From Clostridioides phage phiCD418, in the sequence record MW512573.1: DNA of 53,311 nucleotides; one strand, 5' to 3'. The position numbers and the translations under genes are program-made. The notes below the pieces were generated by a model, which worked only from the letters and a program-made list of their open reading frames with translations, made no database searches and was not told the origin of the DNA. Positions 20,206 through 26,774 of the stretch are shown here, piece by piece (positions within the stretch are counted from its first letter, which is position 1; every line of letters starts with the position of its first letter).

Positions 20206-21342
20206 ATGGAAAGAGAGCTACCTATACCAATTTTTTTAACAGAAGATGAGGACTCTGTACATGAAAGGATGTTAAGTAATTTTCAAGATGTGAGTACTTT
20301 GGAGGGTGACTTTATCTATGATGCAACAAGACCTACAGCAGAGCAGATAGCTGAATTAAAACAACTAGGGCTACAAAATAATTTAAAGATAGCATTTCCT
20401 CAAACTAGTTATGGAACTTACTTAGAGTGGCTTGGTGAATGTAAAGGTGTATTTAAGAATCAACCAACTAAATCGGTTGGTATGATTACATTTACAGGTG
20501 TACAAGGTACTATAATTAAAAAAGGAACTATATTAACTACTGTTGCAACTGATGAAAAACAGAGCATAGAATTTGAGCTTCTTGAAACTAAAACTATAGG
20601 AGAAAATGAAACAGTAGATATTAAAGCAGAGTGTAGAGTTGCAGGAATTACAGGGAATGTGTCTAAAGGTAGTGTATCCGTTTTACTAGGTTCTATTAAT
20701 GGTATTAAAACAGTTACTAATAAAGAAGATTTCAAAGGTGGAACAGATATAGAAGATGAAGAACATTTTAGAGAAAGAGTTCTTGTAGCAGAGCAAGAGG
20801 ACAAATTAAGTGGAGCTAGTTCGGATTATATAAGATGGGCTAAAGAAGTAGATGGAGTGGGATATGCTTATGTAGTTTCAGAATGGGCTGGTGCAGGGAC
20901 AGTAAAAGTATTAATACTAGATAAAAATAGGAAAGCAGCAACACAAGAATTAATAGATAAGGTCCAAGAATATATATATCCATTGAATATAGAAGAAGGT
21001 CAAAATCGAGATGGGAAAGCTCCTATTGGTGCATTAGTTACAGTTGTAACACCCGAAACGCTACTTATTAATGTAAAAGCTAGTTTTATATTTAGTAATA
21101 GCTTTAATGAGGAAACTGTACTAAACAATCTAAAAACTAAGATAGACAAATATTTAGATAAGATTGATTTAGGTGGAACAGTCTCATACAATGCTATACA
21201 GGCGATAGTAGGCTCTATGATGCTGACAGATGAAGGTATACAAGACTTTTCTAATCTTACTATAAATGATGTAAAAGAAAATATAAAATTGCAAGACCAA
21301 GTCGTTGGAGTAGGGGAAATAGTTAACGAGGTGGTTGTATGA
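20206..21342 (+). CDS. Baseplate J-like protein (XkdT-like)
   Basis: 378 aa. Position and size. Gly-rich beta-rich central part typical of Baseplate_J. Confidence 0.8.
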   Translation: MERELPIPIFLTEDEDSVHERMLSNFQDVSTLEGDFIYDATRPTAEQIAELKQLGLQNNLKIAFPQTSYGTYLEWLGECKGVFKNQPTKSVGMITFTGVQGTIIKKGTILTTVATDEKQSIEFELLETKTIGENETVDIKAECRVAGITGNVSKGSVSVLLGSINGIKTVTNKEDFKGGTDIEDEEHFRERVLVAEQEDKLSGASSDYIRWAKEVDGVGYAYVVSEWAGAGTVKVLILDKNRKAATQELIDKVQEYIYPLNIEEGQNRDGKAPIGALVTVVTPETLLINVKASFIFSNSFNEETVLNNLKTKIDKYLDKIDLGGTVSYNAIQAIVGSMMLTDEGIQDFSNLTINDVKENIKLQDQVVGVGEIVNEVVV

Positions 21343-22109
21343 TAACATCTAGAAAAGGTAGAGAAATGCTTATTACATTATCCCCTATTTATGAGCAAAG
21401 TTTAATTATGAACTCTATATATGAAGCTATAGGAAGCGAATTTGATAATCTAGAGTTATTGGATGAAGAAATAGAGTTACAATTATTTCCTCAAACTGCT
21501 ACATGGGGACTTGAATTTTGGGAAAATAGAGTGGGCTTATCCACTAATATAGATGAAGATATAGAAGCTAGAAGAAGAAAGGTCATTGCTAAGCTTCAAA
21601 TGAAATATATTGTTAACCCTAACAGATTAGCAACTATAATAAAAAGCTACACTGGTGCAGACGTATATATAAAAGAAAATATAGCTCCATACACTTTTAA
21701 AGTAACTGCTAATGTAGATGATGTTATTAATTATGAAGATTTCAAATATATAACAAATAAAACGAAACCAAGCCACCTTCATTGGATGCCTTCTTTTGCA
21801 CTCAAATTTACAGATATAGAAAAATTTGAAGTAAAGATGATTAATCGAATATTTATAGATTTTAGAGGGAATATAAGTAATTTCTTAGATGGTATGTGGG
21901 CATTAAATGGCAGTAAAAACTTAAGTGCTTATATACTTTATCATGAGCCAATAAGCTTAAACATGAAAAATAAGTTATTTGTAAAAGAAAGTGAAGTATT
22001 TACAAATCTTAAAGTAATCATTAAAAAGAATTTGTATTATTTGAATGGAATAGAAATGTTAAATGGAAATAAACTGCTTAATGCAGAATTAAGAGAGGAA
22101 GTGTTATAA
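21339..22109 (+). CDS. Tail protein (XkdU / gpI-like)
   Basis: 256 aa, overlaps the baseplate J stop. Position. Confidence 0.5.
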   Translation: MITSRKGREMLITLSPIYEQSLIMNSIYEAIGSEFDNLELLDEEIELQLFPQTATWGLEFWENRVGLSTNIDEDIEARRRKVIAKLQMKYIVNPNRLATIIKSYTGADVYIKENIAPYTFKVTANVDDVINYEDFKYITNKTKPSHLHWMPSFALKFTDIEKFEVKMINRIFIDFRGNISNFLDGMWALNGSKNLSAYILYHEPISLNMKNKLFVKESEVFTNLKVIIKKNLYYLNGIEMLNGNKLLNAELREEVL

Positions 22110-22490
22110 GTGGCAAATGCAGTAACAACAGACATTGCAAGGCAAAAAATGTGTAAAGCTAGAGCAGGTGATATAACATTGCCTACTATAGTTAGTATGG
22201 TGTTTGGAGATGGAGGGATTGGAAATGATGGAAATATAATAGCTCCACTTTCAAGTGATATAGCGTTAAAAAATGAGGTGTTTAGGAAAGATATAGAAAA
22301 TTATGTATATCCAATCCCAACTACTTGCAGATATTCAACCACTTTATTAAAAAATGAAGCAGAAGGAAAAAACATAAACGAAATAGGTTTAATAGATTCT
22401 GATGGTGACTTAATAGCAATAAAAACTTTTGGAAATAAGTATAAAGACAGTGATATGGAAATGGTTTTTCAGATAGATGATGAGTTCTAG
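22110..22490 (+). CDS. Hypothetical tail-fibre-associated protein
   Basis: 126 aa ORF in the fibre block. Confidence 0.3.
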   Translation: MANAVTTDIARQKMCKARAGDITLPTIVSMVFGDGGIGNDGNIIAPLSSDIALKNEVFRKDIENYVYPIPTTCRYSTTLLKNEAEGKNINEIGLIDSDGDLIAIKTFGNKYKDSDMEMVFQIDDEF

Positions 22491-22501
22491 GAGGTGAATA
22501 A

Positions 22502-22930
22502 ATGCCTGATGAATTAAATTTTAATAATGAAATAGAAGAGTATTTAATAACTACACCAGCTCATGCGAATGAGTTTAATAATCGACAACAAAAATTGTTA
22601 GACAATGATAAATATTTAAATAATAAAATTGATACAACTAAAACAGAATTAACAAGCAACATAGAAACTGCTAAAACAGAGTTGAACAACAAAATAGGGG
22701 ATACAACACAACTTACTACAATAGATAAAACAAATATAGTTAGTGCCTTAAATGAGGTAAAAGCTAGTGTAGATAGTATAGAAACAACAGCAGAGAAAAC
22801 AAGCTATAATAATGCAACAAGTAATCTTATTGCTACGAATGTGCAAGGGGCGATTGATGAAGTTGTTAGAAAAATAGAAAATTTTAATGAGGTTAATATA
22901 TCTATACAAAATGATATGTTACCTATTTAA
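22502..22930 (+). CDS. Tail fibre protein, coiled-coil
   Basis: 142 aa with repeated ...TELTSNIETAKTELNNKIGD... heptad pattern. Upstream of the Gly-rich fibre. Confidence 0.3.
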   Translation: MPDELNFNNEIEEYLITTPAHANEFNNRQQKLLDNDKYLNNKIDTTKTELTSNIETAKTELNNKIGDTTQLTTIDKTNIVSALNEVKASVDSIETTAEKTSYNNATSNLIATNVQGAIDEVVRKIENFNEVNISIQNDMLPI

Positions 22931-22946: not shown

Positions 22947-24946
22947 ATGGCTATAGTTTATGAATTTAATTATACAGGTGCTGAACAAAGTGTAGTGTTG
23001 CCACCTGGTAAATATAAGTTTGAATGTTTTGGTGCTTGTGGTGGTAATTATTATGATTTTGTACAGTGTGCAAAAGGTGGCTATACTGCTGGTTCTTTAA
23101 TATTGAAAGAAAATACTACATTACATGTTTACGTTGGGCAAAGTGGTTATTGTAAAGGTGTTAATGGTATTGAGACTTGTAGAAGTGGTTTTAATGGTGC
23201 GGGTGGTATAACCACTTATAAAAGTACTTCTGATGGTTATTATAGTCTTGCAGGTGGTGGAGCTACTGATATTAGACTTATTGGTGGTAACTGGGATAAT
23301 TTACAAAGTTTGCTATCTCGCATAATTGTTGCAGGTGGTGGTGGTGGTGGAAGCGGAAATTCACATGATAGTATTGGTCATGGTGGTGGTACAAAAGGTA
23401 AAGATGGTATTTCTATAGCAAATAAATATTTTGCAGGCGGTGGAAGCCAATTTCAAGGGGGGTTTAACTTTTATAGGTTTTTTTATTGGTCTTTTTGTGT
23501 TAGGGGGGGTGGGGGTGGGAGTTGTGGGGGTTGGGGGGGGGGGGGGTGGGGGTTTGGGGGGGGGGGGTGTTTTTTGTGGTTGTGTGGGGGGGGGGGGGGG
23601 GGGTGGGCTGTGGTGGTGGTGGAAGCGGAAATTCACATGATAGTATTGGTCATGGTGGTGGTACAAAAGGTAAAGATGGTATTTCTATAGCAAATAAATA
23701 TTTTGCAGGCGGTGGAAGCCAATTTCAAGGCGGTTTAACTTTTAATAGTCTTTATAATGGTTCTTTTGGTGTAAGCGGTGCTGGAGATGGCATTAGTGGT
23801 GTTGGTGGCGGTGGTGGTTGGTATTGTGGTGCAGGTAGTTTTTATGCTGAATTTGGTGGTGGTGGAAGTGGATATATTCTAACAAAAGATAGTTATAAGC
23901 CAGCAAATTATAGTCCATCTTCTAAATATTATTTTAGCGATATAAATAGCGTTGTAGGTGGAAATACTACGAAACAAGATGGTTATGCTAAAATAACATT
24001 ACTACAAGCATTGCCATTTTTAACTATATCCTCATATAACTCAACCACAGCAACATTTAAAGCTGACCACACAGACCCAACATTGTTAACTAAAATAGAA
24101 TATTTTATAGATGATGTACTAAAAGAAACTATAACAACAGATTTAACCCTTGAAAAAACAATTAACTATACATTAGAAGATAATGCACTACACACACTTA
24201 AAATAGTTGTTACAGACAGTGCTAATGCTACAGCAGAAAAAGTTGTAAGTATAAGCAAAGGAATTGCACCTCTTCCTGCTGGTTCTACAACAGATGAAGT
24301 TACAAGTAAATGGATAGAAATTAAAGATGCATTTAAAAGTGGCAAAACAAGTATTATAAACACTTTAGCATTAAAAAATATAGAAGCAAGTTTAAACAAT
24401 ACATTAGTAGAGTTATCAGAGAAAATTAAAACTTCTTTTGATAGTTCGGACGCTAGTGTGCAGGATTTGATGAACCAGCTAACACAAGCTAATAATACTA
24501 TAAGTCAGTTAAATACAAAATATAAAGTTGCATCAGGACGTACCAGTGCATTAACAGACACAATATCGACTGCTTATTTGTATGTTAATAGCCAGTCTAA
24601 TCCTAATTATCCAATAAACCCAGGAGGGTGGATTAATATTGAAGGATTAAATTTTATTCCAAATATCTTTTTTGCTGAATGCGAGTGTACAGCTAATAGC
24701 CCAACACAATTTTATAAATACTTAGTCTTTGCCACCTATTCAATCCCATCGCTTTCTGATAAAGATTTTGTAATTACAACCGCTCTTCGAAAAACAAATT
24801 CAGATACCAAATTTACAGCTGATAGTCAGGTTTATATAAATAATAGAGGTAATACTTATATAAATAATCAAGGTGTCTATGTTCCTGCTTATAGACCTTC
24901 TGTGTCTTATACTTTGTACAATTGGTATGCTATAAAATTCATATAA
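22947..24946 (+). CDS. Glycine-rich tail fibre / receptor-binding protein; reading frame interrupted at 23459-23613 by a G/T-only tract between two copies of a perfect 120-bp repeat
   Basis: ORFs 22947-23690 and 23522-24946 both encode GGGSGNSHDSIGHGGGTKGKDGISIANKYFAGGGSQFQGG in their own frames. The copy offset is 272 bp (not a multiple of 3). Removing one copy plus the tract gives one continuous fibre ORF. Confidence 0.55.
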
Positions 24947-24959
24947 AAGAGGTGATAAA

Positions 24960-25253
24960 ATGGATAGAGCAAATAGAATTATATGTGACCAAACCGGGAA
25001 AATATTACTCCAAACTGGAGAAGCAACAGGGGATATATTAGAACATGATGAAATAACGGAATTACATTTTGTTGATATTCCGTATGGAAGTATAGACTAT
25101 ACAAGAAATAGAATTATAGGTATAAATATAGAAACAAAAGAACCAATTTTAGAGGAAATACCAACATTTATTTCAGATGAAGAAAAGAGAATACAAGAGT
25201 TAGAAAATCAAATTTTATTAAATGAAAATGAGAAAGTAGGAGGAATTTTATAA
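24960..25253 (+). CDS. Hypothetical protein
   Basis: 97 aa, RBS agaggtga. Follows the fibre gene. Confidence 0.35.
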   Translation: MDRANRIICDQTGKILLQTGEATGDILEHDEITELHFVDIPYGSIDYTRNRIIGINIETKEPILEEIPTFISDEEKRIQELENQILLNENEKVGGIL

Positions 25254-25469: not shown

Positions 25470-25700
25470 ATGAACGAAGAAGTTATAAAAGAAAAAATAA
25501 AACGAAATGAAATAATGATAAACAGACACAATGATGAAATAGACGAATTAAAGATAGCAAATATAGAGTCTAAAGCAGAGTTAAAAGCACTATGTGAGAA
25601 TTTAAATTCCCTTACCAGCATGTTAAAGTGGCTAATTGGAACTATGATTACAACACTGATAGGATTCTTTATATTTGCAATACAAAAAGGAATATTTTAA
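25470..25700 (+). CDS. XhlA-like hemolysin/lysis accessory protein
   Basis: 76 aa. N-terminal coiled coil and C-terminal TM helix (WLIGTMITTLIGFFIFAI). Immediately upstream of the holin and amidase. Confidence 0.5.
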   Translation: MNEEVIKEKIKRNEIMINRHNDEIDELKIANIESKAELKALCENLNSLTSMLKWLIGTMITTLIGFFIFAIQKGIF

Positions 25701-25719: not shown

Positions 25720-25980
25720 ATGGATAATTTAATAAGTTTTATACCCGAGCAGTTGCTAATTTTAGTAGCTGCTCTCTCTATTATAGGTAAAGGTTGCAAA
25801 AAATATAAACAATTAGACAATAAATACATTCCAATTATATTACTTGTGTTGGGAATCGGATTTTCTATTTGGATGCTAGGGTTTAGTCCTAACGCAGTAC
25901 TGCAAGGTGTAATTTGTTGGGGAATATCAATAGGTATAAATCAAACTTACAAACAACTAAAGGAGGAAAATAAACAATGA
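25720..25980 (+). CDS. Holin
   Basis: 86 aa with 2-3 TM helices and a charged C-terminus. Stop overlaps the endolysin start. Confidence 0.65.
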   Translation: MDNLISFIPEQLLILVAALSIIGKGCKKYKQLDNKYIPIILLVLGIGFSIWMLGFSPNAVLQGVICWGISIGINQTYKQLKEENKQ

Positions 25981-26774
25981 AAATAGCAATAGTACCAGGG
26001 CATACTTTAACAGGAAAAGGAACTGGAGCAACTGGATATATAGACGAAGGAAAAGAAAATAGAATTTTAACTGATTTAATAGTAAAATGGTTGAAACAAG
26101 GTGGAGCTACTGTATATACTGGAAAAGTAGATAAATCTAATAACTATTTAGCAGAGCAATGTCAAATAGCCAATAAGCAAAATGTAGACTTAGCAGTACA
26201 AATACATTTCAACGCAAATAAAACAACTCTAAATCCTATGGGTACAGAGACAATATACAAAACTAACAATGGCAAAGTGTATGCAGATAGAGTAAATACT
26301 AAATTAGCAACTGTATTTAAAAACAGAGGTGCAAAATCGGACGTAAGAGGTCTTTACTGGCTTAGTCATACAAAAGCACCAGCAATATTAATAGAAGTGT
26401 GCTTTGTAGACAGTAAAGCAGATACAGATTATTATATTAAAAATAAAAATACAGTTGCAAAGTTGATTGCTGAGGGTATATTAAATAAAAAAATAGATAA
26501 CATTGAGGTGAAACAGATGTATAAGCATACAGTAATTTACGAGGGAGAAGTTGACAAAGTTCTAGCGCAAATAATTAGTTGGAACTACAAAGAAAATGAA
26601 TGTAGAGTATGCGATATAAAAGATTATGTACCTGGTCAGACTGAAAATCTATATATTGTAGGTGGAGGAGCATGTAACAAGATAAGTTCTATAACTAAAG
26701 AAAAGTTTACTATGATAAAGGGTAATGATAGATTCGATACTCTTTATAAGGCATTGGATTTTATTAATAGATAA
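25977..26774 (+). CDS. Endolysin, N-acetylmuramoyl-L-alanine amidase (Amidase_3, CD27L-like)
   Basis: MKIAIVPGHT...TVFKNRGAKSDVRGLYWLSHTKAPAILIEVCFVDSKAD...AKLIAEGILNKKIDN closely resembles C. difficile phage endolysin CD27L. Anchors the host assignment. Confidence 0.9.
   Translation: MKIAIVPGHTLTGKGTGATGYIDEGKENRILTDLIVKWLKQGGATVYTGKVDKSNNYLAEQCQIANKQNVDLAVQIHFNANKTTLNPMGTETIYKTNNGKVYADRVNTKLATVFKNRGAKSDVRGLYWLSHTKAPAILIEVCFVDSKADTDYYIKNKNTVAKLIAEGILNKKIDNIEVKQMYKHTVIYEGEVDKVLAQIISWNYKENECRVCDIKDYVPGQTENLYIVGGGACNKISSITKEKFTMIKGNDRFDTLYKALDFINR

Follow-up and report, generated by a model that had tools for sequence, protein, structure and literature searches.

Clostridioides phage phiCD418 (MW512573.1), a temperate Clostridioides difficile myophage, was analyzed over its whole sequence record, a stretch of 53,311 nucleotides (nt) that is called the window below. 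The window begins at the terminase small subunit gene, and no terminal repeat was found in it. In its tail region, a Mu Gp48-like baseplate gene is followed by two fiber genes, a receptor-binding protein gene whose reading frame is broken as assembled, a 97-amino-acid (aa) open reading frame (ORF), and the genes for XhlA, holin, and amidase (Table 1). This gene order is the ptsL-ptsM-ptsN arrangement.

The broken gene had been labeled a tail-fiber or receptor-binding gene in an earlier note made from the DNA letters, and this label is borne out by homology. Once the interrupting 272 nt are taken out, as described below, the repaired protein matches Pfam family PF12810 (ALK/LTK glycine-rich domain) with aa 15 to 262 on profile positions 2 to 243 of 243 (E = 3.7e-45), and this match spans the junction at aa 171. 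The protein also matches phrog_1589 from end to end (aa 1 to 575 on profile positions 1 to 563 of 563; E = 1e-255), and its aa 288 to 575 match PDB chain 31he_AAA, "Tail fiber protein" (E = 3.5e-84). A 2026 review (PMC13324602) describes a crystal structure for the phi027 PtsM C-terminal domain, and 31he is presumably that structure. In PtsHN10M, PF12810 lies at aa 14 to 267 (PMC9615553). The gene lies upstream of the lysis cassette, flanked by the baseplate-attachment fiber gene on one side and a small chaperone-like gene on the other, which is the placement of a PtsM-type gene. Together, these matches support its prediction as a PtsM-type tail-fiber/receptor-binding gene.

Like the PtsM-type receptor-binding proteins of C. 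difficile myophages and prophages (PtsHN10M, PMC9615553; phi027 PtsM, PMC13324602), the predicted product has an N-terminal Gly-rich domain and a variable C-terminal half. The order of the baseplate gene, fiber/BPAR-like genes, receptor-binding gene, 97-aa PtsN-like gene, XhlA, holin, and amidase is likewise shared with them. Unlike in these systems, the gene is split as assembled by 272 nt of apparently non-biological sequence. The C-terminal half is predicted, from homology only, to bind the host S-layer protein SlpA.

The 97-aa ORF is named "rhodanese-related sulfurtransferase" in RefSeq relatives and in phrog_1626. This label is probably misleading, because the ORF has no Pfam rhodanese match and occupies the position at which the fiber chaperone PtsN is found in PMC9615553.

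The baseplate-attachment fiber protein is a single ORF of ~260 aa in JD032 and CDMH1 and is represented by two genes here. The first encodes a tail-collar N-terminal module (PF12571) in diverged form. The second, a C-terminal module corresponding to phrog_2137 positions 154 to 267, has its own GGAGGTG ribosome-binding site and ATG, and a separate C-terminal fiber gene is also present in LIBA6276. A second assembly-made split at this pair was rejected on these grounds, and the two-gene arrangement appears natural.

Table 1 Features of the receptor-binding protein locus, with genuine and spurious parts assigned as interpreted in the text
Feature	Position	Strand	Basis or remarks
Mu Gp48-like baseplate gene	21339-22109		
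Fiber gene, tail-collar N-terminal module	22110-22490		
Fiber gene, C-terminal module	22502-22930		
Receptor-binding protein gene as assembled	22947-24946	+	
Genuine 5' part of gene: codons 1-170 plus 2 nt of codon 171, N-terminal Gly-rich domain	22947-23458	+	100% nt identity to LIBA6276 glycine-rich protein gene; PF12810
Repeat copy 1, 121 nt	23338-23458	+	Genuine; exact match to 23610-23730; single occurrence in nine related sequences
G/T tract, 151 nt, degraded copy of 23731-23880	23459-23609	+	Gapped alignment; BLAST; absent from collections
Repeat copy 2, 121 nt, genuine sequence repeated past the chimeric join 23609/23610	23610-23730	+	Exact repeat
True sequence, template of the degraded tract	23731-23880	+	Alignment; identical in LIBA6276, IMG/VR, and metagenome loci
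Genuine 3' part of gene, including C-terminal receptor-binding region aa 288-575	23731-24946	+	Stop-free join; 31he_AAA match
Spurious truncated ORF 1, 247 aa	22947-23690	+	Genuine N terminus, then G/V/W/F-rich junk, then copy 2 out of frame
Spurious ORF 2, 474 aa, TTG start inside tract	23522-24946	+	Mechanical ORF
Spurious poly-proline ORF, 101 aa	23361-23666	-	G runs read as CCC codons
97-aa ORF	24960-25253		
XhlA	25470-25700		
Holin	25720-25980		
Amidase	25977-26774		

Direct repeat, G/T tract, and broken reading frame

The interruption consists of an exact 121-nt direct repeat and the 151-nt spacer between its copies, which are offset by 272 nt. No other exact direct repeat of at least 40 nt is present in the window. 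Composition measured over 23459-23613 is 60% G, 33.5% T, 4.5% A, and 1.9% C, and that of the whole window is 18% G and 29% G+C. Within the window, 50-nt stretches with at least 92% G+T occur at 23476-23628 only. The tract contains G runs of 14, 12, and 18 nt. Chance is excluded as an explanation for the 121-nt repeat and the G/T stretch.

The earlier note had described a perfect repeat of ~120 bp at 23342-23458 and 23614-23730, enclosing a 155-bp spacer made almost wholly of G and T with G runs of up to 25 nt. The repeat is indeed exact at an offset of 272, but it measures 121 nt and its left edge lies 4 bases earlier. The spacer is dominated by G and T as stated but is 151 nt long, and its longest G run is 18 nt, not 25.

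Copy 1 of the repeat starts in a (GGT)n run of Gly codons, and the join 23609/23610 falls at the start of such a run, GTGGTGGTGGTGG. Upstream of 23610, no similarity to the true upstream sequence was found. At the other end, the repeat goes on beyond the 121 nt and through the tract at lower identity, and the repeat search reported it as a 212-nt family at 86% with the same offset.

Because 272 mod 3 = 2, the insertion shifts the reading frame. The split of the Gly-rich gene into two overlapping ORFs and the presence of one 40-aa peptide in both, two further points of the earlier note, were confirmed: the ORFs are 247 and 474 aa long, and each encodes the 40 residues GGGGSGNSHDSIGHGGGTKGKDGISIANKYFAGGGSQFQGG. 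No gene on record encodes the exact 247-aa product. Because of the G runs, the minus strand holds a 101-aa ORF, which a gene caller might list as a proline-rich protein.

Derivation of the G/T tract from the next 150 nt of the gene

A gapped alignment of the tract with 23731-23880 spans its whole length with three gap columns, two in the true sequence and one in the tract. For the first 60 nt of the tract, the local alignment score is 59, and 1000 shuffles gave a mean of 26.6 with a standard deviation of 4.4 and a maximum of 48. Identity per 30 columns runs 0.73, 0.73, 0.70, 0.53, and 0.47, and the G fraction rises from 0.21 to 0.83 in the 5'-to-3' direction.

The differences follow a narrow pattern. 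Relative to the true sequence, the tract carries 52 substitutions (T>G, 22; A>G, 11; C>G, 7; A>T, 6; G>T, 5; C>T, 1), none of which creates an A or a C (log10 P = -17.3 under random target bases). The original base was retained at 48 of 53 G, 39 of 61 T, 7 of 24 A, and 3 of 11 C positions. In the first third of the tract, A was replaced by T three times, and C by G twice and by T once, and A>G did not occur; A>G and T>G predominate in the later thirds.

A BLAST comparison of the relatives' loci with the window returned two alignments with query ranges that overlap by ~209 nt. One of them runs from copy 1 for 89 nt into the tract, to 23547, and this extension is independent evidence that the tract is homologous to the true sequence of the relatives. 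Taken together, these data show that the tract reproduces the 150 nt that come next in the gene, rewritten by strand-specific errors that rise from 5' to 3' and lead solely to G or T.

The repaired gene and its relatives

The gene was repaired by joining 22947-23458 to 23731-24946, which yields a 1728-nt gene with a 575-aa ORF and no internal stop. The same repaired gene results wherever between 23338 and 23459 the removed 272-nt block begins. Its product is colinear with the homologs in LIBA6276 (571 aa), JD032 (565 aa), and CDMH1 (564 aa), each of which is encoded by a single ORF. Over nucleotides 1 to 700, the repaired gene and that of LIBA6276 (MF547662) agree at 100% identity, and the 272-nt insertion is the only difference of the assembled window within this region. 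In the IMG/VR prophage L005 (IMGVR_UViG_2925404430_000005), the whole repaired gene is present without interruption, at 1725 of 1728 nt and with one amino acid difference.

Nine related sequences were compared at the site, namely LIBA6276, six IMG/VR contigs, and two metagenome contigs, the contigs having been found with a 29-nt anchor that matches both repeat copies. The anchor is present in a single copy, followed by the true continuation, in all nine. Neither the tract nor the duplication is present in these sequences, which include ones with 100% identical flanks. The tract was not found in LIBA6276, JD032, CDMH1, or the six IMG/VR and two metagenome loci. Searches with a 44-nt tract pattern returned no match in IMG/VR, and a 27-nt junction pattern gave none in GTDB genomes and JGI metagenomes. 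The fiber annotation at this place is wrong, as the earlier note had held, the true gene being one 575-aa ORF.

Mosaicism is seen in the receptor-binding gene itself, whose first 700 nt are those of LIBA6276, a phage of 134 kb, and the last ~150 aa of its product resemble the 35-kb phage JD032 and not LIBA6276. This pattern looks like the swapping of C-terminal receptor domains between unrelated C. difficile phages. On a larger scale, the structural genes from position 1 to ~24500 are ~90% identical to those of phiMMP02 and phiCD508 over about 55% of the stretch, and phiCD508 carries a different fiber and receptor-binding protein pair at the same position. Within 28400-53311, the part matched at ~31200-52800 (integrase, methylase, DnaD, antirepressors) is 97 to 98% identical to phiMMP03, phiC2, and CDKM15. 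Judged by these matches, the genome is modular. In INPHARED, no phage record reached 80% coverage of any query stretch. The megablast of 28400-53311 also listed, among C. difficile phages, a few matches to phage records named Staphylococcus (two) and Terrisporobacter (one) and to one with the host Escherichia coli.

Origin of the 272 nt

From the assembled sequence alone, the 272 nt are very probably a sequencing and assembly artifact within an otherwise intact PtsM-type receptor-binding protein gene. In the two-color Illumina code, a red signal only is called C, a green signal only T, both A, and a dark cycle G, and poly-G tails are explained by signal fading in late cycles (fastp paper, PMC6129281). 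In the mechanism proposed here, one plus-strand read, or a merged read pair, would have lost fluorescence toward its 3' end. Loss of the red channel would turn A into T and C into G, and with the green channel lost too, every base would become G; the gene's next 150 nt would thereby be called as an increasingly G/T-only string. This G/T-rich tail would then have been joined to the G/T-only (GGT)n run of Gly codons at 23338, a plausible site for a spurious overlap because it is the nearest genuine G/T-only sequence to such a tail. Through this join, the assembly graph would gain a loop, passed once by the assembler, giving the true sequence to 23458, the junk tail, and the true sequence anew from 23338.

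The spectrum and order of the substitutions match two-color signal decay under this code (PMC6129281). The sequence comparison found what such decay would leave behind: a monotonic 5'-to-3' rise on one strand, a recognizable template with errors to G and T only, and absence from independent assemblies. As in two-color poly-G tails of NextSeq and NovaSeq instruments (PMC6129281), G enrichment grows 3'-ward, T and C are miscalled as G as the signal fades, and G/C and A/T contents are strongly separated; a failing red channel would account for A>T and C>G. Such tails differ from the present case in that they are usually trimmed or clipped, whereas here the tail would have been kept in a finished contig and looped back, making a false 121-nt duplication.

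Some observations do not fit smoothly. Six substitutions (five G>T and one C>T) require added green signal, which counts against an account by fading only; they are presumably due to phasing in a T-rich template. Low-coverage tips of this kind are usually clipped by assemblers, and this too counts against the artifact mechanism. A four-color instrument with a failing A/C laser channel could likewise yield G/T-only calls. The repeat length of 121 is odd, like a de Bruijn k, and 151 is a common Illumina read length. These numbers are suggestive but a matter of speculation, with no fully consistent assembler scenario built on them.

The earlier note had offered two readings of the locus, a poly-G assembly artifact collapsed around a repeat and a slip-prone, phase-variable G tract. 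The first is strongly supported by the decaying copy and the G/T-only errors, but not as a collapse around a genuine repeat: the artifact includes the second 121-nt copy, and there is no genuine repeat.

The second reading describes a real G-rich contingency locus, in which slippage in the G runs toggles the receptor-binding protein between an out-of-frame (off) and an in-frame (on) state. Several features would suit such a locus, which we nevertheless consider highly improbable. G runs of 12 to 18 nt would slip readily, and a host-range determinant is the kind of target favored by phase variation. With the tract lengthened by 1 nt or shortened by 2 nt, a single long ORF would be regained, since no forward frame of the G/T-only tract contains a stop codon. 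As in homopolymeric-tract phase variation, long G runs lie in a surface-recognition gene and the frame is set by the tract length. Unlike in that system, there is no single clean tract or simple repeat, but three separate G runs (14, 12, and 18 nt) in mixed G/T sequence together with a 121-nt duplication. The tract lies, moreover, within a false duplication and goes back to the neighboring segment through base-call errors that run one way; at a contingency locus, nothing would lead one to expect a copy of the adjoining 150 nt that decays with errors solely to G and T. Nor is it conserved in any relative: even a short G run is absent at the site in nine of nine relatives, including flank-identical genes, and the tract was not found in IMG/VR, GTDB genomes, or JGI metagenomes. 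The "on" form would add ~90 residues of duplicated and G/V/W/F junk sequence in the middle of the conserved PF12810 domain. To our knowledge, the phase switches known so far in C. difficile work by DNA inversion and not through homopolymer tracts. The proposal of a slip-prone, phase-variable tract thus fails on the lack of a clean homopolymer, on one-way G/T errors that rise from 5' to 3', and on its absence from the nine relatives.

There is only a very slim chance that the tract is physically present in phage DNA as a hypermutable G-rich insertion with a 121-bp duplication that toggles an S-layer-binding receptor protein. If true, no homopolymer-based phase switch would have been known before in the fiber gene of a C. 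difficile phage, and the likeness of the tract to the sequence downstream would call for some undescribed, templated copying process biased toward G and T.

The structure could formally be described as a 272-nt tandem unit, the first unit consisting of 121 nt of perfect and 151 nt of diverged sequence, and tandem duplications with frame disruption do occur in prophages. The locus would then be a genuine 272-bp tandem duplication, the distal half of whose first copy was later scrambled, leaving a pseudogenized receptor-binding gene in a decaying prophage. Such a history is very unlikely in view of how the divergence is distributed: the first 121 nt show none, the next 151 nt start at 27% and climb to 53%, and the changes are one-stranded and lead solely to G and T, a pattern that no known mutational process produces. 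Furthermore, the remainder of the gene and the neighboring genes are intact, the gene is 99.8% identical to that of L005, and an undegraded duplication intermediate is absent from the relatives examined.

A diversity-generating retroelement, with the tract and 23731-23880 as a pair of imperfect repeats in the usual range of ~100 to 150 nt (template and variable repeat) diversifying a fiber gene, as phage fiber genes are known targets, has a vanishingly small probability: changes should hit template adenines only, but the 52 changes fall on A (17), T (22), C (8), and G (5), none of the seven aligned tract A's differs in the opposite orientation, and the "variable" copy wrecks the reading frame. 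A non-exhaustive YxDD scan for a reverse transcriptase in ORFs of at least 200 aa found only the gene itself and a DnaD/DnaB_2 replication protein, and none is named among the feature labels listed for the matching phage regions. The retroelement was rejected on its non-A-specific substitution spectrum and the lack of a reverse transcriptase among these.

The tract and the duplication are almost certainly not a real biological feature, and a faded read tail built into the assembly remains the preferred origin. As assembled, the locus presents a receptor-binding protein that appears broken, two fragment ORFs that overlap, and a bogus minus-strand poly-proline ORF. Annotation pipelines, host-range predictors, and phage therapy screens would take these for signs of a pseudogene, a novel phase switch, or a phage that is defective. 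The earlier note had cautioned that host-range inference depends on the fiber gene. Such inference is less harmed than was feared, with the C-terminal region (aa 288 to 575) reading intact downstream of the artifact. Elsewhere, a G/T-rich insert that is flanked by perfect repeats and aligns, with errors solely to G and T, to the sequence after the second copy would mark a faded read tail, a test that can be made without reads. For phiCD418, the importance of the finding is practical and not biological: removal of 272 nt gives a corrected 575-aa gene, predicted to be of the PtsM type.
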